Below, piece after piece: positions 704 to 13,848 of a DNA stretch of 13,848 nt. The notes under the pieces are model-generated. The model worked only from the letters and a program-made list of their open reading frames with translations, ran no database searches and had not been told where the DNA came from. Numbering within the stretch: position 1 is the stretch's first letter; every line of letters begins with the position of its first letter. The position numbers and the translations under genes were made by a program. The stretch comes from a virus: the IMG/VR virus record IMGVR_UViG_3300045988_113164. One strand, written 5' to 3'.

Positions 704-720
704 TGTTTCACATGAAACAT
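703..720. promoter_or_regulatory. 18-bp palindrome ATGTTTCA-CA-TGAAACAT, copy 1
   Basis: Perfect 8+2+8 inverted repeat. It starts on the last base of the TGA at 701-703 and ends 19 nt before the ATG of the terminal-protein candidate, directly 5' of its RBS. Confidence 0.75.
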
Positions 721-1336: not shown

Positions 1337-3370
1337 ATGATAGCAGATGTATATGCCTTTGACTATTCGATTTTTAAAAAAGCAGGAAATGTGAAAAGAA
1401 AGAGAGGTTCACGGAATAAGAAAAACTATAAAAATCTGGTTTGTGCTTTTGACATTGAAACAACCCGAATAAAAGAAATCGAGCAAGCCGTCATGTATAT
1501 CTGGCAATTTCAAGTTGACGAAAAAGTAACTGTGATAGGGAGAACATGGAGAGACTTCGACTACTTTATGAGGGCTATCGCATCTGACTTGGAAGATACG
1601 GAATATGTCGTTGTTTATGTTCATAACCTTTCTTTTGAGTTCCAGTTTCTTTCGGGAATCTATCCTTTTTCAAAGGAAGAGGTTTTCGCTTTGGACAAAC
1701 GAAAAGTTTGCAAGTGTGAAATGTTTGAGCATTTTGAGTTCCGATGCTCCTACATTCAAACAAACATGAGTTTACAGACATTTACAGACAAAATGAACGT
1801 TAAGCATAAGAAACTTTCCGGCGATCTTGATTATAACGTGGAGCGTTATTCATATACACCGCTAAGTGACGAAGAATTTGCATATTGTATTAACGATGTG
1901 CAAGGTCTTGTAGAAGCGATTAAGACGGAAATGAAAAATGATGGCGATACATTGTATACAATCCCGCTTACCTCAACCGGATACGTTCGGCGTGATGTGA
2001 AAAACGCACTTGAAGGCAACCGTTGGATTATGGGAATCCAGCCGGATTTCGATGTCTATCAAGTAGCAAGAGAATCGTTCCGCGGCGGCAACACACATGC
2101 GAACCGATTCTATGCCGGATGGATTCTTGAGGGTGTCCATTCCGCCGATCGTTCCTCAAGTTATCCGGGTGTTCAGTGCAACAGAGCCTATCCGGTCACC
2201 CGATTTCACAAGATTTCAAAACCCGTTCCTGATGCAGGTCAGATCATTGATCTAATGAAAAGAAGAGAAAAAGCAATTTTGATGAGGGTATCATTCAAGG
2301 GAGTGTCCTTAAATGATTACTCTTGGGGGTGTCCCTATCTGGCAAAAGACAAGTGCAGAACAATTGTAAATGGAGTATTCGATAATGGGAGAATATTAAG
2401 CGCAGATTACTTGGAGACTTCCATTACGGACGTGGATTTAAGAATCATAGTCGAAGAGTATCATATTGACGAAATTGTACCGATTGAAGTTTATACCGCG
2501 CGCTATGGAAAACTCCCCGCCGCTATGATTGAAACCATTTGTCTGTATTATAAGAAGAAAACAGAGTTGAAGGACGTAGAAGGGCAGGAATATTTTTATA
2601 TGAAAAGTAAAAATAAGCTTAACTCTATCTATGGCATGACAGCGCAAGACCCTGTCAAAGAGTCAATATTGTATCAAGATGAAGAATTTACAATTGATAC
2701 GTCAAAGACGAAAAAAGAACTATTGGAAGAGTTCATGAAACGGGCGTTCATTCCTTACACCTGGGGTGTTTGGTGTACCGCATGGGCACGGTATGAACTG
2801 GAACGGGGTATGCGTATGGTGACAGATCAAGGCGGAACGTTTATTTACTGTGACACGGATTCTATCAAATATTTAGGTGATGTCGATTTCACAATCTACA
2901 ATAACGAAAAAATAAAGTTGTCTAAAGAGAACGGCGCATGGGCTACAGACCCTCAAGGTGTGGATCATTACATGGAAGTTTATGAACAGGAGAAAGACGC
3001 TGATCGTTTCATTACATGGGGAGCGAAAAAGTACGCATACGAAGCTGACGGGAAATTAAAGATCACGGTAGCAGGAGTGCCGAAAAAAGCTGGGGCGGAA
3101 GAATTAAAGAGGAAAGGTGGCTTGGATGTGTTAAAGCCCGGTTTTGTATTCAGCGATTGCGGCAAACTGGAAACTGTTTACAACGACAAACCGGAAATAA
3201 CAAAATATAAAAATAAGGACGGCAAGACGATAGAAATAACGAAAAATGTTGTGCTTAGACCAACGACATATGCAGTAGGCATAACGAAGGAATATGAAGA
3301 TATTTTACAAGATGCTCTATTGTATAATCAATCAGTAAAAATCTTAAAAGGAACAAATTTATTATCTTGA
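1337..3370 (+). CDS. Family-B DNA polymerase, protein-primed type (677 aa)
   Basis: Motifs read in the translation: ExoI FDIETT, ExoII HNLSFEFQFL, ExoIII YCINDVQGL, motif A DRSSSYPG (Dx2SxYP), motif B KNKLNSIYGM, motif C YCDTDS and KxY GAKKYAY. Each parallels the phi29 gp2 motif: HNLKFD, YIKNDIQ, DVNSLYP, KLMLNSLYG and YCDTDS. Confidence 0.95.
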   Translation: MIADVYAFDYSIFKKAGNVKRKRGSRNKKNYKNLVCAFDIETTRIKEIEQAVMYIWQFQVDEKVTVIGRTWRDFDYFMRAIASDLEDTEYVVVYVHNLSFEFQFLSGIYPFSKEEVFALDKRKVCKCEMFEHFEFRCSYIQTNMSLQTFTDKMNVKHKKLSGDLDYNVERYSYTPLSDEEFAYCINDVQGLVEAIKTEMKNDGDTLYTIPLTSTGYVRRDVKNALEGNRWIMGIQPDFDVYQVARESFRGGNTHANRFYAGWILEGVHSADRSSSYPGVQCNRAYPVTRFHKISKPVPDAGQIIDLMKRREKAILMRVSFKGVSLNDYSWGCPYLAKDKCRTIVNGVFDNGRILSADYLETSITDVDLRIIVEEYHIDEIVPIEVYTARYGKLPAAMIETICLYYKKKTELKDVEGQEYFYMKSKNKLNSIYGMTAQDPVKESILYQDEEFTIDTSKTKKELLEEFMKRAFIPYTWGVWCTAWARYELERGMRMVTDQGGTFIYCDTDSIKYLGDVDFTIYNNEKIKLSKENGAWATDPQGVDHYMEVYEQEKDADRFITWGAKKYAYEADGKLKITVAGVPKKAGAEELKRKGGLDVLKPGFVFSDCGKLETVYNDKPEITKYKNKDGKTIEITKNVVLRPTTYAVGITKEYEDILQDALLYNQSVKILKGTNLLS

Positions 3371-3436
3371 CAGGAATTAAAAAGAGAGTTATCATAGATA
3401 TGCAACAAAGAACAATACAAAGAAAGGAGCAGAAAC

Positions 3437-3688
3437 ATGAAAGGAACTATTAGCAAGACAGTGGTAACCACTCTGTTGGAAGTGACTCGCTATAACGAAG
3501 AAACGAAAACAGAGGAAACGGTTACAAGAAAGTTCATGACACTGAGAACCCCCAGCTACGAACGCATTGAAAATTATCTCATGGAAGATAAAGGATATCT
3601 CGGTTTCAAGGTGCTTTCCAGCACGGAAGAAGTCTATGCCATGGAAGCCGATGAATTTATTAAAAATGCAGTGAAAAAGGAGAGATGA
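3437..3688 (+). CDS. Hypothetical early protein (83 aa)
   Basis: RBS AAAGGAG 8 nt before the ATG, and the ORF runs in the operon direction. I recognise no motif. By position it could be a DNA-binding or regulatory protein. Confidence 0.6.
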   Translation: MKGTISKTVVTTLLEVTRYNEETKTEETVTRKFMTLRTPSYERIENYLMEDKGYLGFKVLSSTEEVYAMEADEFIKNAVKKER

Positions 3689-3690
3689 CA

Positions 3691-4038
3691 ATGAAAATCA
3701 TTCGAAGCAAAAGTGAAAAGATTACAGTAAAAGAGAAATATCTCATGTCAATGAATCCCGAGATTCGTAGAATGAGAGATGCTGAGGGGATGAATGTTCC
3801 GGTGCTTAACTGGATGATCTATTCCGAAAAGGACAAAGAGGGAAATGAACAGATCCTTCTTTCCATCCTGTCTGAGGATAATGTTGCATATGCAACAAAC
3901 AGCCGGACTTTCATCGAAGCATTTTCCGTACTCTGTGACATGTTCGCAGACAGCGGGGAAGAGATTGCCGCTATTAAGGTAATTGGTGGACAGTCAAAAA
4001 CAGGACGGCACTATATCACCTGTGCCTATGCTGAGTAA
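3691..4038 (+). CDS. Hypothetical early protein (115 aa), a positional candidate for an SSB or DNA-binding protein
   Basis: GGAG at 3679-3682 sits 8 nt before ATG 3691. ATG 3685, used by the track, is only 2 nt from the SD. The ORF is followed by an intrinsic terminator. The functional suggestion rests on position only. Confidence 0.6.
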   Translation: MKIIRSKSEKITVKEKYLMSMNPEIRRMRDAEGMNVPVLNWMIYSEKDKEGNEQILLSILSEDNVAYATNSRTFIEAFSVLCDMFADSGEEIAAIKVIGGQSKTGRHYITCAYAE

Positions 4039-4083: not shown

Positions 4084-4113
4084 AAAGCCCCGTTCCGTTA
4101 TCGGGGCTTTTTT
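4084..4113 (+). terminator. Rho-independent terminator ending the early replication operon
   Basis: Stem AAAGCCCCG (4084-4092) pairs with CGGGGCTTT (4102-4110). The loop is 9 nt. The T-run at 4108-4113 is TTTTTT. Confidence 0.8.
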
Positions 4114-4129
4114 CCATAGAGGTGATTAT

Positions 4130-5170
4130 ATGAAGGAAAAGAACATTTATGACCGTAATGGTTTCATCAATATACCGGCTATTTATAACATACCAGTACC
4201 GTTCATATTTATTGTAGGCGGTCGGGGAACTGGAAAAACGTATGGTGTCTGCAAATTCGCAATCGAGAGAAAGATCAAATTCGCACTGATGAGACGAACA
4301 CAAACACAGTCTGATCTGATTTCCAAACCGGAATTTTCACCACTCAAACCCGTCCTGAGCGATATGAACCGGATGTTCAAGGCCGTTTCATTGACAAAAC
4401 AGAACAGTGCGTTTTATGAAACGGATATGGAAGGAACGATTATTTCACCAGAGCCGTTCTGTTATTCACTTGCACTGTCAACCATTTCGAATATGCGTGG
4501 TTTTGATGCCAGTGATATCTCCCTCATCTTCTATGATGAGTTTATCGCAGAAGCGCACGAACGACCATTGAAAAATGAAGCAGAAGCCTTCTTTAACTGT
4601 TACGAAACAATTAACCGTAACCGTGAATTGAAAGGGATTGCACCTGTCAAAGTGATCTGTGCGGCCAACAGCAATAACATGGCAAATGAACTCTTTATAT
4701 CGTTGGGACTGGTGCTGAGAGCGGAAAAGATGTATCAGAACGGAACATCTATCTGGATAGATAAAGAACGGGGTCTAGCACTGATTATTTGTCAAGACAG
4801 CCCGGTTTCCGAAGCGAAAGAAAAAACAGCATTGTACAATTTGGTGTCAAGGGATTCTGACTTTTATCAGATGTCATTAAAGAACGTGTTCACGAAAGAC
4901 AGAGCGGATAACATCGGCAGTAGAAACATCAAGGAGTTTAAACCATTAGTCCATGTGGGCGAAATGTATATCTATCGACACAAGTCACGACAGGAGTACT
5001 ACGTCACCTCATTTAAGTCAGGAGTATTCAAAGAGAACTACACCATGAGCGAAAATGATAAAGTGCGTTTCCGCTTGAAATATCGCTACCTGTGGATTGC
5101 TTTCCTATCACGCTCCTTGTATCTTGAGAACTACATCATCCAAGTTCTTTTTACAAAATGTTTCATGTGA
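4130..5170 (+). CDS. DNA encapsidation (packaging) ATPase, phi29 gp16-like (346 aa)
   Basis: Walker A FIVGGRGTGKTY parallels gp16 FVIGARGIGKSY. FALMRRT parallels FIYVRRY. Walker B LIFYDEFI parallels IVFDEFI. NRNRELKGIAPVKVICAANS parallels RNRERVRCICLSNA. Confidence 0.9.
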   Translation: MKEKNIYDRNGFINIPAIYNIPVPFIFIVGGRGTGKTYGVCKFAIERKIKFALMRRTQTQSDLISKPEFSPLKPVLSDMNRMFKAVSLTKQNSAFYETDMEGTIISPEPFCYSLALSTISNMRGFDASDISLIFYDEFIAEAHERPLKNEAEAFFNCYETINRNRELKGIAPVKVICAANSNNMANELFISLGLVLRAEKMYQNGTSIWIDKERGLALIICQDSPVSEAKEKTALYNLVSRDSDFYQMSLKNVFTKDRADNIGSRNIKEFKPLVHVGEMYIYRHKSRQEYYVTSFKSGVFKENYTMSENDKVRFRLKYRYLWIAFLSRSLYLENYIIQVLFTKCFM

Positions 5171-5175
5171 AACAT
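5158..5175. promoter_or_regulatory. 18-bp palindrome, copy 2 (centre TG, the reverse complement of copies 1 and 3)
   Basis: ATGTTTCA-TG-TGAAACAT. It spans the ATPase stop codon (5168-5170) and ends 1 nt before the -35 hexamer of the following promoter. Confidence 0.75.
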
Positions 5176-5176
5176 C

Positions 5177-5206
5177 TTGCTAAAAAAGAGGGATGCGTGT
5201 TATAAT
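5177..5206 (+). promoter_or_regulatory. Promoter with extended -10: TTGCTA, 18-nt spacer, TGtTATAAT
   Basis: -35 TTGCTA at 5177-5182. TG at 5198-5199. -10 TATAAT at 5201-5206. It lies in the 171-bp non-coding gap between the ATPase gene and the late genes. Confidence 0.65.
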
Positions 5207-5212
5207 TATAGG

Positions 5213-5317
5213 TGAAAAGGAAGTGCTAGAAACAATCCCGGAAGGATGCACATGTTCTATGTTTCGGAACAGGAATCTTTTTCGACAGGCGGTATATATA
5301 CAACCGCCTGTTTTATT
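5213..5317 (+). ncRNA. Candidate short transcript or leader (~105 nt) running from the promoter to an intrinsic terminator
   Basis: The predicted start is about 5212-5214. Possible hairpins are ATCC/GGAT (5235-5248) and TGTTC/GAACA. The 5' GAAAAG could pair with CTTTTTC at about 5276-5283. The transcript would end at the 5285-5317 terminator. No convincing RBS or start lies inside: ATG 5246 directly abuts GGAAGG with no spacer. Confidence 0.35.
5285..5317 (+). terminator. Intrinsic terminator or attenuator upstream of the late operon
   Basis: A 9-bp stem, ACAGGCGGT (5285-5293) pairing with ACCGCCTGT (5303-5311). The loop is 9 nt and is followed by TTTATT. Confidence 0.65.
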
Positions 5318-5341
5318 AAACGGGAAGAAAGAGAGGTGTCC

Positions 5342-5539
5342 ATGGATGCAAACACTATAATGACGTTGGTGCAGAATTTAGGTTTTCCTGTCATTTGTTG
5401 CGGGGCGCTGTATTGGCGTATGCTGAAAGAGTCCGACAATCATAAGGCAGAAATGGAGAAAGTTACTGACGCATTAAACAACAACACACAGGCACTCATC
5501 CGATTGGAAGAATCATTGAAAGGAGAAAAAGAAAAATGA
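5342..5539 (+). CDS. Small membrane protein (65 aa), YvrJ-like, possible holin-type function
   Basis: RBS AGAGAGG precedes ATG 5342. Sequence MDANTIMTLVQNLGFPVICCGALYWRML has one hydrophobic helix with a GFP motif, then a charged coiled-coil tail. This is the pattern I recall for the YvrJ family. The track start at 5246 would translate through the terminator hairpin. Confidence 0.6.
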   Translation: MDANTIMTLVQNLGFPVICCGALYWRMLKESDNHKAEMEKVTDALNNNTQALIRLEESLKGEKEK

Positions 5540-5876: not shown

Positions 5877-7100
5877 ATGGTGAATGATTTATCTTTTGAC
5901 CAGCTGTCAACCGTGCTGACAGCGATTACGAATCAGGCAACCGGTGTGAATAATGTCGCGCCGATTGATACTGCGTCTTTTGTTAGCGTTGCGCAGATGG
6001 CGTTGAAAACTGGCTACGATCCCTTGACTACTGCAATTTCACAGGTGCTGTCAAGGACAATCTTTTCTGTCAGACCCTACTCACGAAAATTCAAAGGTTT
6101 GAATGTATCGAATCAGCGCTATGGAAATCATGTTCGTAAACTGCTGACTATTGATAAGCCCTTCGAGGATGATGACAGGTTAAAGCTGGTAGACGGGGAG
6201 TCTATTGATCAGTACCGGGTGAACAAACCGAAAGTTTTACAGACAAACTTCTACGGGGCAAACGTCTATCAGAAGTCAGTGACGATTTACAAGGATCAGT
6301 TAGACTGTGCTTTCTCATCACCGGATGAGTTTGCATCGTTCATTTCTATGGTAATGCAGAACGCTTCGGATATGATTGAACAGGCTCATGAGGAAACCGC
6401 GAGAGCAACAATCAACAATCTGATTTCCGGTATTTATGCGGCTGAGACGACAAGCGGCACCGCTAATACCATGGCGAAATCAAATGGTGGTAAACGCGCA
6501 ATCAATCTGCTGACCTTGTATAACCAGACGAACGGTGGCGCATTAGGGGTCAACGATATTTTCAAGGCGCAAAACTTTGAAAGCTTTGTAAAATTTGCGT
6601 TTTCAACGATTAACACGCTCGCAGATTTAATGACAGACAGAAACACCTTATTCTCTTCCCAGCTGACGAACTACACGGTTATTCGGCATACGCCGAAAGA
6701 CAGGATGAAATTTTATCTCTACACAGATCTGGTCAATAAGATCAATTCAGAAGTATATTCGACCGTATTCAATCCGGACTTCCTTAAGCTTGTTGATTTC
6801 GAAAGAGTCAATTTCTGGCAGTCAGCTTTGAATCCATCTCAGATTCAAAACAAACCTGTGATGTTAAACAAAGATGGAACTTTGAACACTGTCGGAAATA
6901 CAGATATCGGAAATGTATTCGGTGTTCTTTTTGATGAGGAGGCGGCGGGTTACACAACCGTAAATGAATGGTCACAGCCCAGTCCGTTTAATGCCCGTGG
7001 CGGATACTACAACCAGTTCTGGCACTTTACTGACCGTTACTGGAATGATTTCACGGAAAATGCGATTGTATTCTACGTTGCCAATCCATCTGATGAATAA
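5877..7100 (+). CDS. Major capsid protein, phi29 gp8-like HK97 fold (407 aa)
   Basis: [27 protein letters not shown] parallels gp8 [38 protein letters not shown] parallels gp8 RGLYWNYYYHVW. The position after the scaffold gene fits. Confidence 0.85.
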   Translation: [407 protein letters not shown]

Positions 7101-7117
7101 TGTTTCACATGAAACAT
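7100..7117. promoter_or_regulatory. 18-bp palindrome, copy 3 (identical to copy 1)
   Basis: ATGTTTCA-CA-TGAAACAT. It starts on the last base of the capsid TAA and ends 17 nt before the tail-knob ATG, directly 5' of its RBS. Confidence 0.75.
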
Positions 7118-7134: not shown

Positions 7135-8532
7135 ATGGCATTATCAGTTACTCTTTATACATTCTCCAAACGGCTCAACAGTACAAAAAATCCCCCCGCT
7201 GAGGGGGGATTCACTGTACAAGCCGTCCTAAAAGACAACACCTCTATCATAAGACCGGAATTAGAAGTTGTTGAAAATGTGACTGCTTATAACTATGCCT
7301 ATATTCCCGCCTTCTATCGGTATTATTTCGTTCAAGATGTGATCTGGGAAAAAGGTGTGTGGCGCATTGTACTCTCAGAAGATGTTCTTGCCACCTATAA
7401 AACAGTGATCGGAGACACAACCGCCTATATCCTGCGATGCGCAACGTTCCAAGACCCGACAATTATTGATAGCTTATATCCTACGGTCGTTGGTGTAGAA
7501 AGCACTTCAAGCGTGGGTTCTTGGGACTGGGTGAACCCCGACTTGGATAAAGGAACTTATGTGGTAGGTCTGGTTAACAACAATGATACGGTCGCAGGCG
7601 GCGTTGCATACTACGCATTAACAGGTACAGAAATGGCGGCTTTTCGCGCATACATGCTAGGTTCTATCCAGTCTTGGGATCAGATCACCGATTTTGCGGG
7701 GGATGTAGCGAAAGCATTCATTGATCCATTTCAATACGTGGTTTCCTGCTTATGGTTTCCAGTTCCCGTCCCCGCTGATGAGGGAGCAACACCACTCGGC
7801 TTCGGGTTTTGGTCTACACCGGAATTAACAGGGCACAAGCTGATTTCCACCACGTCTACACAGACGTTGACACTGAAAAGACCAAAACGCCCTCACAATG
7901 AGGACTTGGTTTATTTGCGCTACCCGCCATTTGCAGAATACTACGCAGTAGCCGACCCATGGGGCGTGATCCCGCTGGACGGGAATAAAATTGTTGATGA
8001 TGTTCTTTTCACAGCAACATTCGACTTTGTGACCGGAAAAGGAATCCTGCGAATCGAAGCGAAGGTTGGCGAGGATACCCGGAACTATAGACTTTTGTAT
8101 GAAGGACAGGCGCAAGTGGGTGTGACTATACAGCTTTCCAATGTTACGTTCAACTACGAAAAATCGTTTTCCGGTCTGTCTGGCGCACTATCAGCGGCGG
8201 CGGGTGGACTCATTTCCGGTATCGCAAGTGCTTTTTCCGGTTCGGGAATTGCTTCATCCATGGAAGCGAGCAACAGCATTTTGAATACGACCGGAACAAA
8301 CAGCGGTATGGCGGCGATCGGGTTGGGTCACTTTGTTGCACTAAAAGCAAACTATTTTTCACAGGTCGCCTATGACAAAGCCGACAACGGCTCACCACTC
8401 TGTCAGCACAGGAAAATTTCTGATTGCACGGGCTATGTGAAAGTGGAAAACGGAGCAATCAATTTTTCCGCGCTCGAACCGGAAAAGAAAATGGTGAAAG
8501 AATTTTTAGAAGGAGGATTTTATTATGAGTGA
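7135..8532 (+). CDS. Tail knob / distal tail tube protein, phi29 gp9-like (465 aa)
   Basis: N-terminal YNYAYIPAFYRYYFVQDV...SEDVLATY parallels gp9 YIMFQNADYGNKWFYAFVTEL...EIDVLQTW. The Gly/Ser/Ala-rich hydrophobic segment GLSGALSAAAGGLISGIASAFSGSGIASS parallels the gp9 loop GGGISAGASAAGGSALGMASS. C-terminal GYVKVENGAINFS...KEFLEGGFYYE parallels gp9 NYVQTKDCFISG...RTIFDNGITLWH. Confidence 0.8.
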   Translation: MALSVTLYTFSKRLNSTKNPPAEGGFTVQAVLKDNTSIIRPELEVVENVTAYNYAYIPAFYRYYFVQDVIWEKGVWRIVLSEDVLATYKTVIGDTTAYILRCATFQDPTIIDSLYPTVVGVESTSSVGSWDWVNPDLDKGTYVVGLVNNNDTVAGGVAYYALTGTEMAAFRAYMLGSIQSWDQITDFAGDVAKAFIDPFQYVVSCLWFPVPVPADEGATPLGFGFWSTPELTGHKLISTTSTQTLTLKRPKRPHNEDLVYLRYPPFAEYYAVADPWGVIPLDGNKIVDDVLFTATFDFVTGKGILRIEAKVGEDTRNYRLLYEGQAQVGVTIQLSNVTFNYEKSFSGLSGALSAAAGGLISGIASAFSGSGIASSMEASNSILNTTGTNSGMAAIGLGHFVALKANYFSQVAYDKADNGSPLCQHRKISDCTGYVKVENGAINFSALEPEKKMVKEFLEGGFYYE

Positions 8533-8704
8533 GATTAAAATGTATTCATTACCGACAACCGTAGCTGTAGCCATTCTGGTGATTGGCGGGAATTATGGAA
8601 ATGGAACTGACCGTATTAAGCGGTTGAAAGCAGATGGTTTTGATCCTGTGCGGGTGCAGAAATGTGTAAATGATCTTCTTCCTATAGTCAAGAGGTATCG
8701 TTAA
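8525..8704 (+). CDS. 59-aa protein with one CW_7-like (Cpl-7-type) peptidoglycan-binding motif; not in the supplied ORF track
   Basis: Hand translation: MSEIKMYSLPTTVAVAILVIGGNYGNGTDRIKRLKADGFDPVRVQKCVNDLLPIVKRYR. GNYGNGTDRIKRLKADGFDPVRVQKCVNDLL matches the CW_7 repeat pattern as I recall it (G.WGNG.ER...L.AAGYDY.AVQ..VN.LL). RBS AAGGAGG lies 8 nt upstream. The ORF overlaps both neighbours, by ATGAGTGA upstream and TAATG downstream. Confidence 0.65.
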   Translation: MSEIKMYSLPTTVAVAILVIGGNYGNGTDRIKRLKADGFDPVRVQKCVNDLLPIVKRYR

Positions 8705-9786
8705 TGGCGGGCAATATTCAGGTGTCATATCAGTGGGCAATTGACACCTGCAACAAAAACAATGTCGGTTATTCTCAGACTTACAGAAATCAGCAGACAG
8801 TGAACGGAATCACTTATTACGATTGCAGTTCCTTCATCTGGTATGCCCTTCTTGCATCTGGTTTTGATGTAGTAGCCGCCCACGGCGGGCAATCATGGCC
8901 GTTCACTACTTATGATATGGGTAGTGTTCTGGATGCACTCGGTTTCAACCGTGTACCTGTCAACGATGTCTGGAAACCGGGAGATATTCTTATAAGGAAT
9001 AACCGCTATGGTAACCATACCGAAATGGTATACGAAGGTCGCCGAACCATGGGCGCACACAACTCACATTTACCTCTCAGCGAACAAGTGTCGATTAACA
9101 CGGGTGACAGTAACCCTGCCACTTGGGATACCTGTCACAGATTCGGAGGAGGTGCGGTAGGAGCAAAGGGAAGTAGTGCTTATGTAGTTGCGGCTATCTG
9201 TGGTAATTTCTGGCAGGAATCCGGCATCAATCCTGGCATCTGGCAGGACTTGAATCAGTCAGCCTTTACAGATTTATTAGTCGGTTTCGGTTTAGGGCAG
9301 TGGACAAATACAGAAGGAGACACCCATGGACGACTTTACAAATTACATGAATGGTTAATGAACAACGGCTACGCCGATGATGATGGGGTGGGTCAGCTAA
9401 ACTATCTGATTCACGAGAACGTCTGGTATAGCACTGGGGAAGCATCTGCCTACAAAAATCTGACTGAATTTTTAACCAGTGACAGCACAGATATTGCGGC
9501 GTTGACTCACGCATGGAACATTGGCTGGGAAGGAATCCATGACAGTTCGTGGGATGCCCGTGTGCAGTATGCGCAGAACTGCTATAACTACATCATCGCA
9601 CATGCAAATGACACATCCATCACGACCTGGGCAAAAGGTAACCGTTACCTCAGCGAAGCAGAGCGTTATAACAATGCAGTGTTAATTTATCGTTTCCTCA
9701 GCACCGGGGCTACACCCGGAACGGGAACAACGTTTCTGATCGCGGTTCTCAGTAAAAAGAAACGGAGGGATAGAAGAAATGTATAA
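8704..9786 (+). CDS. Two-domain tail-associated peptidoglycan hydrolase: N-terminal NlpC/P60-type cysteine peptidase and C-terminal phage tail lysozyme-like domain (360 aa)
   Basis: YYDCSSFIWYAL carries the catalytic Cys context. PGDILI...GNHTEMVY carries the His. The C-terminal AAICGNFWQESGINPG...GFGLGQWT is the signature I recall for the phage tail lysozyme family (GN...ESG.NP...G.G..QW). Functionally it corresponds to phi29 gp13. Confidence 0.8.
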   Translation: MAGNIQVSYQWAIDTCNKNNVGYSQTYRNQQTVNGITYYDCSSFIWYALLASGFDVVAAHGGQSWPFTTYDMGSVLDALGFNRVPVNDVWKPGDILIRNNRYGNHTEMVYEGRRTMGAHNSHLPLSEQVSINTGDSNPATWDTCHRFGGGAVGAKGSSAYVVAAICGNFWQESGINPGIWQDLNQSAFTDLLVGFGLGQWTNTEGDTHGRLYKLHEWLMNNGYADDDGVGQLNYLIHENVWYSTGEASAYKNLTEFLTSDSTDIAALTHAWNIGWEGIHDSSWDARVQYAQNCYNYIIAHANDTSITTWAKGNRYLSEAERYNNAVLIYRFLSTGATPGTGTTFLIAVLSKKKRRDRRNV

Positions 9787-10693
9787 CGGCATACCCTTTT
9801 CGGCAGATTATATCAATGCGGCTAACTCGGTGATTTCACCGAGTACCGTCCATTGCCGGAATACCAGCTTATCTCTTTATTTTCAACGATATCTGTTACA
9901 GAAAGCAATGAGTGTCTTCAAATGGGAAATGCCGCCGCTATGGGCGAAGAACTATACCCTCTATACGCTGTACTGCTGGGGCTTTTTCGCTGTAGTCAAC
10001 ACAGACAGATACGGCGTGATCCCGCAGGCCTGTGGTCTGCGGGGGTATGATGTAATGTATCAGCCGACCAACGCGATCATCACAAACCCACTCCTATCTG
10101 GGACACTAGAACCGCGGATTGGTTTGCAGTGCGAATTGGTTCGGCTACAGCCGGATTACGGCGGCATCATGGATATTGTTACCTATTATGCAGATATGTT
10201 AGCCCTGTGTGCGGAATCAGTAGGAATGAATCTTGTGAACAGTAAACTTGCTTATGTGTTCGCCGCAGAAAATAAAGCAATGGCGGAAACATTCAAAAAG
10301 CTGTATGATCAGATTGCCGCTGGAAATGTGGCGGCTGTGATTGACAAACAGTTATTCCGGGACGACGGCAAGGCGAACTGGCAGATGTTCAACCAGAACG
10401 TAGGTCAGAACTACATTGCGGATAGAGTGCTTTCGGATATGCGGAAAATCGAAGCTATGTTCTGCACGGACATAGGCATCCCGAATGCGAACACGGACAA
10501 AAAGGAACGCTTAATCACGGATGAGGTCAACGCAAATAAAGTTGAAACCCACTCCAAATGCGATTTATGGTTGGAAGAGCTGAAAGAATCCTGTGAGAAA
10601 GTCCGGGAGATGTTTGGAATCAAACTGGATGTTAATTGGAGATATAAAGGGGGCGAGGAAAATGGCAACATTGAGTCTACTGGGACTGTATAA
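9779..10693 (+). CDS. Portal / upper collar connector, phi29 gp10-like (304 aa)
   Basis: [23 protein letters not shown] parallels gp10 [41 protein letters not shown] parallels ACEKINELYGLNVKVKFRY. The size matches (309 aa in phi29). Confidence 0.9.
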   Translation: [304 protein letters not shown]

Positions 10694-11501
10694 CCATGAC
10701 GAATCCCTTCTGAATGGTTTGATTGAAAATTTACCGAACAAATTCGGAATACCGTCCAGTTACGAGGATTCCTACTACACCGATGTAACCATTGACCCTC
10801 AGACCGTAACAGAAAATCTGCTGGTCGAATGTGCTGAGTTTGAAATTTTGTATTCAGACTCCGACGCATTAAAGAGGATCATCACTATATGGTCTGCAAA
10901 AGAGAAACCCGTGTGGCAGAAAATGTTTAACACGATCTGCTATAAGTACAATCCAATCTGGAACAAAGATGGAAAAACTACGTGGACGGAACAGCAGACC
11001 ACAAGCGGAACTAAAACGGAAATGGAAAAAGGAACAAAAACAACCAGCGAGGACGGTTCAATCACTGATGATTATACCTCAACTAGCACCACGACAAATA
11101 CAACAACTGGTGCCGGCACAAATACCCGCGCTGGAAATGATGAAACAACCGGAAAGGTCAGTGCTTATGACAGCACGGATTTTCAGAACAGGGACAAGAC
11201 AAACAGTACCTCTAGTGAAAATAGCACAACGGAAAGCAACGAAGAGTTCACCGGAAAAGGAAACGTCACAAACAAAGGGAAGAAAACAACTACAAACGCA
11301 GGAGATGAAAAACATGATGTTTCACGTGAAACAAATGACAGTAATACAGGTGAAACAACTCATGAGCAACGAGAAACGGGTAACATCGGTGTTACTATGA
11401 CTCAACAGATGATCACCGCGGAACGTGAAATTGCCATGTTCAATATCATTGATTTTATCATCAATGATTTTAAAGAGCGTTTCTGTTTACGGATTTATTA
11501 A
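10662..11501 (+). CDS. Lower collar protein, phi29 gp11-like (279 aa), with a Thr/Ser/Asn-rich central region
   Basis: The start is reassigned to ATG 10662 (MATLSLLGLYNHDE), preceded by GGGGGCGAGGA. The track start at 10593 lies inside the portal gene. The position after the portal fits. YKYNPIWNKDG and the C-terminal GNIGVTMTQQMITAEREIAMFNIIDFIINDFKERFCLRIY match the lower-collar pattern as I recall it. Confidence 0.7.
   Translation: MATLSLLGLYNHDESLLNGLIENLPNKFGIPSSYEDSYYTDVTIDPQTVTENLLVECAEFEILYSDSDALKRIITIWSAKEKPVWQKMFNTICYKYNPIWNKDGKTTWTEQQTTSGTKTEMEKGTKTTSEDGSITDDYTSTSTTTNTTTGAGTNTRAGNDETTGKVSAYDSTDFQNRDKTNSTSSENSTTESNEEFTGKGNVTNKGKKTTTNAGDEKHDVSRETNDSNTGETTHEQRETGNIGVTMTQQMITAEREIAMFNIIDFIINDFKERFCLRIY
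11317..11334. promoter_or_regulatory. 18-bp palindrome, copy 4 (imperfect, intragenic)
   Basis: ATGTTTCA-CG-TGAAACAA. It matches the consensus arms at 15 of 16 positions, and the 14-nt core GTTTCACGTGAAAC is a perfect palindrome. It lies inside the lower-collar ORF. Confidence 0.5.
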
Positions 11502-11515
11502 AGGAGGATGCGAAA

Positions 11516-13021
11516 ATGGGATTATTCGATCAATTTCCCTACACAAATTTTCATGAACTGAACCTCGACTGGATTGTTGAGCAGATGCGTAGTCAGAAAG
11601 ATTACGTTGATAAAATTGATGATCATGTTGCCGAAGTTGATAAACATGTTACTGAGGTTGATAAACATGTTACCGAGGTTAATAACAATGTTTTAAATGT
11701 AGATAAACACATTGATGCAAAAGTGGCAGAAATAACACCACCTCTAGTCAAAAGCACTGTGGAACAGATGTCGGAAGATGGTAAACTGCTGGCAAATAGC
11801 GTATTTAACGTTGTTCTGCACGGGGCTGATAATACGGGTGTTACTGATGCCAGCTCCGCTATACAGTATACAATTGATAAGTACCATTTCGCTTATATCC
11901 CAAATGGACTTTATAAAGTTGATAAGACGTTAATAATTGATAGTGGATGTGTGCTGATCGGGCAAAGTTGCATTGATACTATTCTCAACGTCTCAGCAAT
12001 CAATGGTATTGTAACTAAAGATTTTTTCAGTAAAACCGCAACAGGAACGGAAGCGGGAATATATGGATTTACAATCGCCAATTTACATCTGACCGGACTT
12101 AATACAGAAAATGCTGGATATGGTATCGCTGTATACGGGTACAGGTATAGAATCACAAATTGCTTTATTGAAAAATTTCACACCGGATTATACAGCGAAT
12201 ACAACAAATCAACAGGCTTTGCCCCTAGTGGCAGTACAATGGAATCGCTCATCTCACATTGCTTAATACAGCGCAATATATCAACCGCTATGGTATTCAG
12301 AGGGCCGAGTGACTCGCGTATTGAGGATGTTGATTTTTCAAACAGCCCCTATGGTATCGTGTTTGAAACCACTGATAGCTCGTGGGCGTACGGAACAAAG
12401 GCAATTAACTGTCATGGTTATCGCATTACCGCCGTGGGATGTTATACAGTTAAAGATAATATTAGTCTGATCAATTGCATCGGAGAAAGTAGCTATAATG
12501 GTGTTGATATCGCAGGATCGGGAATCGTACTGGCTAATTGTAGTTTCTACAACAACGACACAAGCGGTATTTACTTTTCGACTGGTCGTGATATTTCAAT
12601 ATTCGATGCCACTCTGCAGGGAAACAAAGGCAGTGAAATCCATTTACAAAGTCAGCTTAGTGACAGCTATATCACTGCTAGAATCGTAGGAACACCTAGC
12701 GCAGTACTCAGCGGCGGAGGAGGCGTTGATATCAGAACTACTAGCATAAAAGTATATTCTAATGTTGATGCTAGTATCTATAATAGTCCTAAATCATTGC
12801 CAATCACTGGTGTAGGAGATGTAACCGCGAATACGGCGCACAAGGCATCTGATAACTATTGTGTGCTCGCCTATCAGACAGGCGGTGAGGGATTCAGCGT
12901 TAATGACGGCACAGGTGACAAACCGATCGGAAATGCGCCTTGCTTCTTTGTGCCTGCTGGAGGGACATGGAAATGTACAACAGAGCCGGGAAGTATGTAC
13001 TATCAGCCAATCCTGTTTTAA
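11516..13021 (+). CDS. Tail appendage / tailspike receptor-binding protein with a predicted right-handed beta-helix (depolymerase-like) domain (501 aa)
   Basis: The N-terminus FPYTNFHELNLDWIVEQM is a common tail-fibre anchor motif in phages of Gram-positive hosts. A heptad-repeat coiled coil follows (VDKHVTE x2 plus degenerate copies). HGADNTGVTDASSAIQYTID is a pectate-lyase-3-like start (GDG.TDD..AIQ). Repetitive G/N/I-rung sequence follows. The position corresponds to phi29 gp12. Confidence 0.75.
   Translation: MGLFDQFPYTNFHELNLDWIVEQMRSQKDYVDKIDDHVAEVDKHVTEVDKHVTEVNNNVLNVDKHIDAKVAEITPPLVKSTVEQMSEDGKLLANSVFNVVLHGADNTGVTDASSAIQYTIDKYHFAYIPNGLYKVDKTLIIDSGCVLIGQSCIDTILNVSAINGIVTKDFFSKTATGTEAGIYGFTIANLHLTGLNTENAGYGIAVYGYRYRITNCFIEKFHTGLYSEYNKSTGFAPSGSTMESLISHCLIQRNISTAMVFRGPSDSRIEDVDFSNSPYGIVFETTDSSWAYGTKAINCHGYRITAVGCYTVKDNISLINCIGESSYNGVDIAGSGIVLANCSFYNNDTSGIYFSTGRDISIFDATLQGNKGSEIHLQSQLSDSYITARIVGTPSAVLSGGGGVDIRTTSIKVYSNVDASIYNSPKSLPITGVGDVTANTAHKASDNYCVLAYQTGGEGFSVNDGTGDKPIGNAPCFFVPAGGTWKCTTEPGSMYYQPILF
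11636..11677 (+). repeat. 21-bp tandem repeat x2 (GTTGATAAACATGTTAC[T/C]GAG) within a longer degenerate heptad array (about 11606-11719)
   Basis: Units at 11636-11656 and 11657-11677 differ at one base. The flanking units are degenerate. They encode VDKHVTE heptads. Confidence 0.9.
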
Positions 13022-13693: not shown

Positions 13694-13722
13694 AGTATAG
13701 CATGAAATAACTATTTTGTCAA
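13694..13722 (-). promoter_or_regulatory. Right-end early promoter: TTGACA, 17-nt spacer, TGcTATACT
   Basis: On the minus strand, -35 TTGACA occupies 13717-13722, inside the ITR and mirroring 127-132. The spacer is 17 nt. An extended TG precedes the -10 TATACT at 13694-13699. The RBS and ATG at 13661 lie about 30 nt downstream. Confidence 0.75.
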
Positions 13723-13848
13723 CAACTATTTTATATTAACTAAAACTTGTGCTGTTAATAATTCCAGTGCATAGACGAGCGCATGTGGGAACTTTAACAC
13801 TTTACCACGTTAACGCGTTACCACTGTGATGTGCTAAAGTACTACCAC
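13715..13848. repeat. Right inverted terminal repeat (ITR-R), 134 bp
   Basis: Exact reverse complement of 1-134. Confidence 0.97.

Follow-up and report, generated by a model that had tools for sequence, protein, structure and literature searches.

A predicted RNA with the design of phi29 packaging RNA heads the late operon of a small phi29-like phage

We analysed a 13,848-nucleotide (nt) stretch of viral DNA, IMG/VR record IMGVR_UViG_3300045988_113164 (the window), and in particular a gap in its coding sequence at positions 5171-5341, between the gene for a gp16-type DNA packaging ATPase and the first late gene, which encodes a holin-like membrane protein. Comparison of this gap with its counterparts in related phages makes us close to certain that it encodes a conserved structured RNA with the design of the packaging RNA (pRNA) of phage phi29: a closing helix, a three-way junction, and a bulge and a hairpin loop that are complementary to each other. 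We further infer, with a probability of roughly 0.6, that this RNA serves in packaging, as a small-scale version of the phi29 RNA.

A structured RNA between the late promoter and a terminator

The longest internal non-coding gap of the window is 5171-5341, and the promoter, terminator and palindrome that the first-pass annotation of this DNA had reported are all found where it had placed them. Three open reading frames (ORFs) that enter the gap (5193-5360 and 5246-5539 on the plus strand and 5257-5439 on the minus strand) were ruled out as coding. We take the gap to be non-coding because relatives carry insertions or deletions of 1, 2 and 4 nt within it; the start of the holin-like gene at 5342 is served by its own ribosome-binding site. 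The gap and its edges contain the following features.

5158-5175: 18-bp palindrome ATGTTTCATGTGAAACAT, adjoining the -35 box and overlapping the ATPase stop codon
5177-5206, plus strand: sigma-A/sigma-70-type promoter, with TTGCTA (5177-5182), an 18-nt spacer and the extended -10 element TGTTATAAT (5198-5206; TG at 5198-5199, TATAAT at 5201-5206); predicted start near 5211-5214
5214-5221, plus strand: helix A, 5' strand, GAAAAGGA, pairing with 5276-5283
5223-5226, plus strand: helix C, 5' strand, GUGC, pairing with GCAC at 5248-5251
5227-5234, plus strand: 8-nt bulge UAGAAACA in the 5' strand, counterpart of the CE or right-hand loop of pRNA
5235-5247, plus strand: helix E (AUCC/GGAU) with the near-invariant pentaloop CGGAA (5239-5243)
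5248-5251, plus strand: helix C, 3' strand, GCAC, continuous with the 3' strand of helix E
5253-5271, plus strand: hairpin D, stem UGUUCU/GGAACA and loop AUGUUUC (5259-5265), counterpart of the D or left-hand loop of pRNA
5272-5275, plus strand: purine-rich strand GGAA joining D to A, about 6 nt and AAGAAA-like in most relatives
5276-5283, plus strand: helix A, 3' strand, UCUUUUUC, assigned from fold and covariation
5284-5317, plus strand: intrinsic terminator, stem GACAGGCGGU (5284-5293) and ACCGCCUGUU (5303-5312)
5320-5341, plus strand: leader of the first late gene, with ACGGGAAG (5320-5327) followed by the ribosome-binding site GAGAGGUG (5331-5338)

The structured core thus occupies 70 nt (5214-5283) between the promoter and the terminator hairpin. 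The terminator consists of a 10-bp GC-rich stem with a 9-nt loop, followed by UUUUAUU; it folds at -16 kcal/mol (z = -6.4), and none of 200 shuffled sequences folds as well. Our terminator scanner missed it because the scanner limits loops to 8 nt and this loop has 9. Among close relatives the stem is conserved and the length of the loop varies. The terminator is predicted to end the RNA at a length of about 105 nt. Some polymerases must read through it, because no promoter fits between the terminator and the first late gene.

The RNA is conserved in structure across distant relatives

In 18 close relatives the ATPase protein is 96-99% identical to that of the window, and the gap DNA is just 79-92% identical. 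The changes in the gap concentrate in the promoter spacer and downstream of the terminator; the stretch 5214-5283 is kept or undergoes compensatory change. The same architecture lies between the ATPase and holin-like genes in 80 further viral contigs whose ATPases are 43-50% identical to that of the window. A covariance model, R1, built from 48 sequences and searched against 572 kb on both strands, gave exactly one match per locus in 89 of 95 sources, every one of them on the strand of the ATPase gene. It also gave 40 further matches, directly downstream of the ATPase gene, in 73 GTDB contigs, an independent set from which nothing had been used for model building. The members reach far: ATPase identity to the window falls as low as 27% (locus L103), and pairwise identity of the RNA itself averages 48%, with a minimum of 24%.

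Read from 5' to 3', the consensus begins with helix A (7-14 bp) and a 1-nt spacer, continues with helix C (4-6 bp), a bulge of 7-9 nt restricted to the 5' strand, and helix E (3-5 bp) capped by the CGGAA pentaloop, and returns along a 3' strand that runs uninterrupted through C. A spacer of 1-2 nt then leads to hairpin D (stem of 4-6 bp, loop of 5-9 nt), and a purine-rich spacer of about 6 nt leads back to the 3' strand of helix A. The minimum-energy folds of four divergent members have this same shape.

The structural covariation in homologous regions that the first-pass annotation had proposed looking for is strong. It was measured on two alignments, one of 68 distinct rows derived from the training sequences and one of 38 distinct independent rows. 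Standard pairs fill 85% of the paired cells, compared to 52-54% in shuffled alignments. The covariation score is 0.78-0.80, compared to 0.18-0.19 after shuffling (none of 500 shuffles reaches the observed score) and 0.09-0.18 when the pairing partners are slid along the alignment. Changes on both sides of a pair occur at 23-24 of the 25 pairs, with about 21-22 of 25 in shuffled alignments and 15-22 with slid partners; this count was matched by 9 of 500 shuffles for the training-derived rows and by 159 of 500 for the independent rows. Because the both-side count does not discriminate, the case rests on the paired cells and the covariation score.

Helix A is 95% paired, with both-side changes at all 7 modelled pairs, and helix E is 99.6-100% paired, with both-side changes at all 4 pairs. 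Helix D is 86-94% paired, and a U-A pair in it is replaced by C-G in L008 and in L012-L017; in the latter the pairing of helix C is preserved by a change of register. Against the mean pairwise RNA identity of 48%, the CGGAA loop stands out with at least 90% conservation.

The bulge and the D loop covary as interlocking partners

Over its last 4-6 bases, on the 3' side, the bulge is complementary in sequence to the D loop. The window has GAAACA (5229-5234) opposite UGUUUC (5260-5265), and the nearest divergent clade (L012-L017) has GAAACC/GGUUUC. Other relatives have, among others, GCACA/UGUGC, GUGC/GCAC, AACC/GGUU, UGCAC/GUGCA, GGUCA/UGACC, AACCAA/UUGGUU, GACCA/UGGUC and AGACGA/UCGUCU. In all, 26 distinct complementary pairs occur in one set of sequences and 20 in a second, independent set. 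In a test that is free of alignment register, every bulge was set against the D loop of the same RNA and against those of other RNAs. At least four Watson-Crick pairs can form between own partners in 88% and 71% of cases in the two sets, compared to 12% and 11% for mismatched partners, and none of 10000 permutations reached the mean of the own partners in either set.

A further motif concerns the E loop. The counterpart of ACGGGAAG in relatives is CCGGG or UCCGG, and in roughly half of the clades (A/U)UCCGG or CCGGG stands 10-15 nt before the first late ribosome-binding site (for example, at 3628-3633 in L066, 3629-3636 in L081 and about 2640 in L102). UCCGG/CCGGG is the reverse complement of the E-loop sequence CCGGA, and the motif is seemingly missing from clades whose E loop is a variant (CAGAA, CUGAA or CGAAA). 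This hints at a possible long-range pairing or at a site for the same protein in both elements.

A sigma-A-type promoter and a recurring palindrome precede the RNA

The late promoter scores 10 of 12, plus the TG, which places it among the five best sites in a scan of the window. Promoter-like sites are not enriched there as a class (36 found, 32.6 expected); the site alone therefore proves nothing, and it is conservation that carries the weight. A -10 box with at least 5 of 6 matches lies upstream of the RNA in 70 of 83 distinct related loci, and in 43 of these 83 the box ends 8-9 nt before the start of the model. Nearly all clades have a promoter of the sigma-A type ahead of the RNA, and it is often perfect, TTGACA-17-TATAAT. 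Within the clade of the window TGTTATAAT is invariant and the promoter spacer varies freely. From the fixed distance we conclude that transcription should start at helix A.

The palindrome next to the promoter recurs through the genome. Its core, TGTTTCAYRTGAAACA, has four exact copies in the window (704-719, 5159-5174, 7101-7116 and 11318-11333), where 0.06 are expected, and a degenerate copy at 3882-3897. It is found in 68 of 204 fetched loci, distant relatives included, at three different positions relative to the RNA, often 5-10 nt upstream of a ribosome-binding site or beside the late promoter. As an RNA hairpin it would be weak (-5.7 kcal/mol). It is degraded at the late-promoter site in six close relatives (L012-L017), which retain the promoter, the RNA and the terminator. 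The palindrome is probably an operator for a phage regulator and not a constant part of the RNA module.

In the clade of the window the loop sequences GAAACA (5229-5234) and AUGUUUC (5259-5265) are also half-sites of the palindrome at 5158-5175. This identity may be a coincidence, because the loop sequences of other clades are unrelated to it.

The RNA travels with the late operon

In every clade examined the late operon has the RNA at its +1, always with the ribosome-binding site of the first late gene 10-60 nt downstream; the holin-like gene also lies 3' of the RNA in relatives. The clade of L107, which also includes L109-L115, has its late genes on the opposite strand. In L107 the RNA (12918-12986, minus strand) is at the head of this inverted late arm, with 8.4 kb between it and the ATPase gene; helix A and the UUUUU after it look like the terminator itself. 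The RNA thus stays with the late promoter, and the idea that it belongs with the ATPase gene was ruled out.

How the RNA ends differs between clades. A dedicated terminator hairpin is found only in the clade of the window; in L025, L096, L098, L102, L107 and AD70P3, helix A followed by a U-run takes its place. The last of these is a cultured phage, Amedibacillus phage AD70P3 (L099, OP172639.1), which has an unannotated copy of the miniature RNA at 6290-6372 on the minus strand, 3' of its ATPase gene, with a TTGACA-16-TATATT promoter, helix A, a UAUCC/GGAUA loop pairing, the loop CCGAA and the U-run UUUUAUAUAU.

A longer form occurs in phages of Clostridium innocuum. Clostridium phage CI130P2 (L100; 9998-10126, minus strand) and likewise L104, L105 and L117-L129 have an unannotated RNA of about 115 nt, from promoter to U-tract, between the polymerase and ATPase genes. 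Its topology is pRNA-like: helix A is long, ACCA/UGGU serves as the loop pairing, and helices C and D show compensatory changes. Neither Rfam RF00044 nor R1 matches it. This RNA looks like an intermediate between the miniature and phi29 forms. R1 had no significant match in phi29, AD70P3 or CI130P2; given that the RNA of AD70P3 was recognised only by eye and by folding, the model is too narrow to mark the outer limit of the family.

All 73 GTDB ATPase loci lie on contigs of at most about 15 kb, most of them whole at 12-15 kb and about 20 of them shorter fragments. Such phage genomes are often binned into metagenome-assembled genomes (MAGs), here mostly of gut and rumen Clostridia (Lachnospiraceae, Acutalibacteraceae, Oscillospiraceae and Christensenellaceae), and this MAG membership suggests the host range.

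The RNA shares its plan with phi29 pRNA

Like the RNA of the window, phi29 pRNA belongs to a podophage with protein-primed replication, a gp16 ATPase and a gp10 connector, and it has a sigma-A-type promoter of its own and a terminator at its end. In both RNAs the two ends pair as helix A and lead into a three-way junction, as judged for phi29 from our own folds and the Rfam consensus; both have a C-E arm with an 8-9-nt bulge restricted to the 5' strand, and a D hairpin. The order of parts in phi29 is A, a 1-nt spacer, C, a 9-nt 5' bulge, E and D, with AACC in the bulge pairing with GGUU in the D loop. In each case the bases that pair with the loop are the 3'-most of the bulge, abutting helix E, and the loop pairing covaries among relatives despite a poorly conserved primary sequence. 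Both RNAs also carry a dispensable-looking hairpin 3' of the core (domain II in phi29). There are differences as well. The core of the gut RNA is about 70 nt in length, compared to 117-120 nt for phi29 pRNA, and its E loop is the near-invariant CGGAA. It is encoded in the middle of the genome, at +1 of the late operon, whereas the phi29 gene is terminal, early and points outward.

Several observations weigh against a role in packaging. The Rfam pRNA model RF00044 (Phage_pRNA) finds no match at E <=10 in the window or in five relatives, and scores 145 bits on phi29 as a positive control. Helix A is short, at 8 bp in the window and 7-14 bp in relatives, and lacks a conserved bulge, whereas helix A of phi29 has about 25 bp and an essential CCA bulge, and is the arm on which the ATPase docks. 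The single-stranded spacer of the junction lies between D and A, whereas in phi29 it lies between C and D. The N-terminus of the connector, MYNGIPFSADYINAANSV, contains no cluster of arginine or lysine, unlike phi29 gp10 with its basic RNA-binding tail. Then there is the position of the RNA: in all cases it forms the 5' leader of the late operon, never a gene by itself, and a cis-acting element would look alike. Many clades have neither a terminator hairpin nor a U-run after the RNA, so a free small RNA would there need processing. The pairing of bulge and loop fits contacts between molecules and within one molecule alike, and sequence and covariation cannot tell these apart. Finally, the 70-nt core of the window phage is not unusually stable alone (z -0.8), and the terminator accounts for most of the z of -3.65 obtained for 5213-5320; the case accordingly rests on covariation and not on energy.

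One of the two readings offered by the first-pass annotation was that the gap encodes a discrete pRNA-related RNA. The covariation, the three-way junction and the interlocking loops speak for that reading; its argument from the neighbouring ATPase gene fell away, and the RNA does not fit the Rfam pRNA model. We class the gut RNA as a variant with pRNA design outside the curated family, because the plan is shared but the size, helix A, the spacer, the E loop, the RF00044 result and the connector differ.

A possible role in packaging

What favours a packaging RNA is that the phage has the motor proteins of phi29, a protein-primed polymerase and terminal repeats; that the fold agrees with pRNA in its details, and that the RNA appears to be a discrete unit from promoter to terminator. 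No other pRNA candidate is present in the window, and none of its sequence matches a pRNA in Rfam. The first-pass annotation had argued that the genome ends offer no room for such an RNA, and the inward-facing promoters near both termini agree with that. The position in the late operon fits an RNA that is needed alongside proheads.

In the mechanism that we propose, the terminated RNA of about 105 nt would be the abundant product of the late promoter. Copies of it would link to one another, bulge to loop, and form a ring on the connector of empty proheads, as in phi29, and this ring would serve as the dock for the gp16-type ATPase when the protein-capped genome is packaged. The ATPase encoded at 4130-5170 is the presumed partner of the RNA, and the connector is the presumed docking site of the RNA on proheads. 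The fraction of polymerases that read through the terminator would make the late mRNA, for the holin, capsid, connector and tail; with partial readthrough, one late promoter would therefore give RNA in excess over the structural proteins. The palindrome beside the promoter would probably be the operator that times it.

The RNA might also have two jobs, a combination that we consider quite unlikely. It would act as a late leader that sets the amount or translation of the late mRNA, and as a packaging RNA once released. Termination would occur at helix A or at the hairpin that follows, and the E-loop sequence CCGGA would pair with UCCGG/CCGGG. Capture of the RNA by new proheads or their connectors would feed back on this leader and so couple virion assembly to transcription. 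The pRNA would then be ancestral to phi29-like phages generally, with the long form of the Bacillus phages derived from it.

Alternatives to a packaging RNA

The main rival is that the RNA is a cis-acting leader of the late operon, in which bulge and D loop form an intramolecular pseudoknot and the likeness to pRNA is convergent; we hold this to be possible, with a chance well short of even. Such a leader could make polymerase resistant to terminators, as HK022 put and the Bacillus EAR element do, or be an attenuator that responds to a protein or ligand, or control translation of the first late gene. The constant place of the RNA at +1 of the late transcript, where it stays with the late operon after rearrangement, is what one would expect of such a leader, as are the terminator 3' of the RNA in the clade of the window and the complement of the E loop that roughly half of the clades carry. 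The similar length of helices C and D moreover places the bulge about as high above the junction as the D loop; the ranges of the two lengths are too close to decide between pairing within a molecule and pairing between molecules, and either kind explains the covariation equally well. Yet the 1-2-nt linker between C and D appears short for a side-by-side arrangement, and no alternative (anti-terminator) pairing is conserved: the one candidate, AACAGG (5269-5274) with CCUGUU (5307-5312), is lost in L008 and L010. Terminators are absent from many clades, and the family is confined to phage-like contigs of at most about 15 kb, never beside cellular genes. For convergence to yield exactly the topology of pRNA, in phi29-like phages with no second candidate for a pRNA, would be a remarkable coincidence. 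The known systems of this kind resemble the gut RNA in part. HK022 put and EAR are structured RNAs (about 70-120 nt) that come first in the transcript of a long operon and have terminators downstream, but put is two simple stem-loops and EAR folds differently, and neither has a three-way junction with a covarying pairing of bulge and loop; in several clades, moreover, the closing helix and U-run of the gut RNA would themselves terminate transcription. The purine riboswitch aptamer is likewise a three-way junction of about 70 nt whose arms touch through their loops, with a terminator before the regulated genes. In the gut RNA, however, a bulge and a loop make the contact through 4-7 canonical pairs, a conserved junction pocket and an alternative anti-terminator are both absent, and the RNA occurs in phage genomes only. 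No Rfam model for a riboswitch, a ribozyme (hammerhead, twister and others), EAR or a leader matches the gap in the window or in five relatives at E <=10.

The first-pass annotation had offered a second account, a switch in the style of lambda pR'-tR', in which a protein loads at the palindrome and enables polymerase to ignore the terminator, and the short RNA is a by-product like the 6S RNA of lambda. The layout is indeed that of lambda: a late promoter, a short transcript, a strong terminator directly 5' of all late genes and no space for a second promoter, with a statistically significant palindrome abutting the -35 box. But the transcribed region is under strong structural selection, unlike a by-product and unlike lambda 6S RNA, and Q needs an element inside the promoter and a promoter-proximal pause. 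The dedicated terminator is not family-wide, and the palindrome, besides its decay in L012-L017, lies over the promoter or after the RNA elsewhere. No homologue of Q, N or another antiterminator was found with Pfam and PHROGs in the 19 main ORFs (the ORFs at 10969-11400 and 615-693 lay outside the scan); several small ORFs of the window have no annotation after these scans. With its dedicated terminator restricted to one clade, its loading site not kept and no antiterminator in the ORFs scanned, this account no longer holds up well, and we regard it as very improbable. Even less credence goes to the simplest possibility, that the structure protects the 5' end of the late mRNA from a 5' exonuclease and does nothing more. 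Stem-loops at the 5' terminus stabilise mRNAs in Firmicutes, and helix A is at or beside the predicted start in all clades; a simple hairpin would suffice for this, leaving the CGGAA loop, the three-way junction, the covarying loops and the adjacent terminator unexplained.

Packaging RNA beyond the Bacillus phages

For almost 40 years pRNA has been regarded as peculiar to phi29 and its relatives among the Bacillus phages. A 2016 review calls it unique to the phi29 group (PMC5066667), and one from 2024 likewise describes it as unique, on current knowledge, to phi29 and related Bacillus phages (PMC11476376). A structure-based search in 2025 added 12 new pRNAs, all of them in phages whose listed names are of the Bacillus type, and that paper does not mention metagenomes, Clostridium or Streptococcus (PMC12670572). 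The RNA described here is absent from the full-text literature that we searched, which leaves much subscription content outside it, and no Rfam 15 family matches it.

A packaging role for the RNA would make RNA-dependent motors commonplace in the gut viromes of humans and animals and would shift the origin of pRNA to the root of a far wider group of phages. The RNA would then also provide a natural scaffold of about 70 nt with more than 40 orthogonal pairs of interlocking loops for pRNA-based RNA nanotechnology. Should the RNA turn out to be a cis-acting leader, it would represent a regulatory RNA of a new class in phages, one that governs an entire late operon. AD70P3, as a cultured carrier of the RNA, offers an experimental system for the packaging question.

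Lactococcus phage asccphi28 (L203) is phi29-like, and for it a lack of evidence for a pRNA has been stated, an absence that motivated the work in question (PMC7823558). Its 577-bp terminal repeats contain units at 23-401 and 18362-18740 in which an annotated outward promoter (P1/P8) and an annotated terminator (T1/T4) are separated by about 300 nt that contain no ORF. This unit is placed and oriented like the phi29 pRNA gene; its fold has a z of -3.1, from the single phage folded.

The genome and its other features

The window is a complete linear phage genome of 13,848 bp with 137-bp inverted terminal repeats that are 99% complementary. Its main features other than those of the gap are as follows.

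1-137 and 13712-13848: inverted terminal repeats, each with an imperfect palindrome centred on AACGCGTT
1337-3370, plus strand: family B protein-primed DNA polymerase
3685-4038, plus strand: phi29-type single-strand DNA-binding protein
4130-5170, plus strand: gp16-type DNA packaging ATPase (PF05894, E 6e-16)
5342-5539, plus strand: first late gene, holin-like membrane protein of 65 amino acids (phrog_4898 holin, E 5.5e-7)
5877-7100, plus strand: phi29-type major capsid protein
8704-9786, plus strand: tail lysin
9779-10693, plus strand: gp10-type connector or upper collar (PF05352, E 4.7e-20; phrog_2038)
11516-13021, plus strand: beta-helix tail protein

Three small genes at the right end are transcribed inward. 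In the Pfam scan the proteins of the window also match PF25622, PF17427 and PF03175, and among solved structures the ATPase is closest in sequence to phi29 gp16 (7jqq, E 2.8e-9). The sole near relative at the DNA level among deposited phages is an unannotated human faecal contig that matches the right arm only; the gap DNA had no meaningful match in the similarity search of deposited phages. Because of its phi29-type genes, the gp16-like ATPase, the terminal repeats and the faecal relative, we assign the window by sequence to a small phi29-like gut podophage. The terminal repeats stop inside the -35 boxes (TTGACA) of two terminal promoters that face inward.

A few further elements of the genome stand apart from the RNA. 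An ORF for 59 amino acids (8525-8704), between the gene for a tail protein of 465 amino acids and the lysin gene, consists of one CW_7 cell-wall-binding repeat; either a binding module with a gene of its own or a frameshifted piece of a neighbouring gene could account for it. On the minus strand a terminator-like hairpin (7188-7212; GGGGGG/CCCCCC stem and T6) lies inside the plus-strand ORF 7135-8532 and might block antisense transcription. A promoter-like site that scores 11 of 12 is found at the end of the polymerase gene (3367-3395). Just 5' of the ATPase gene is a plus-strand terminator-like hairpin with T6 (4092-4107), and expression of the ATPase would therefore need readthrough.

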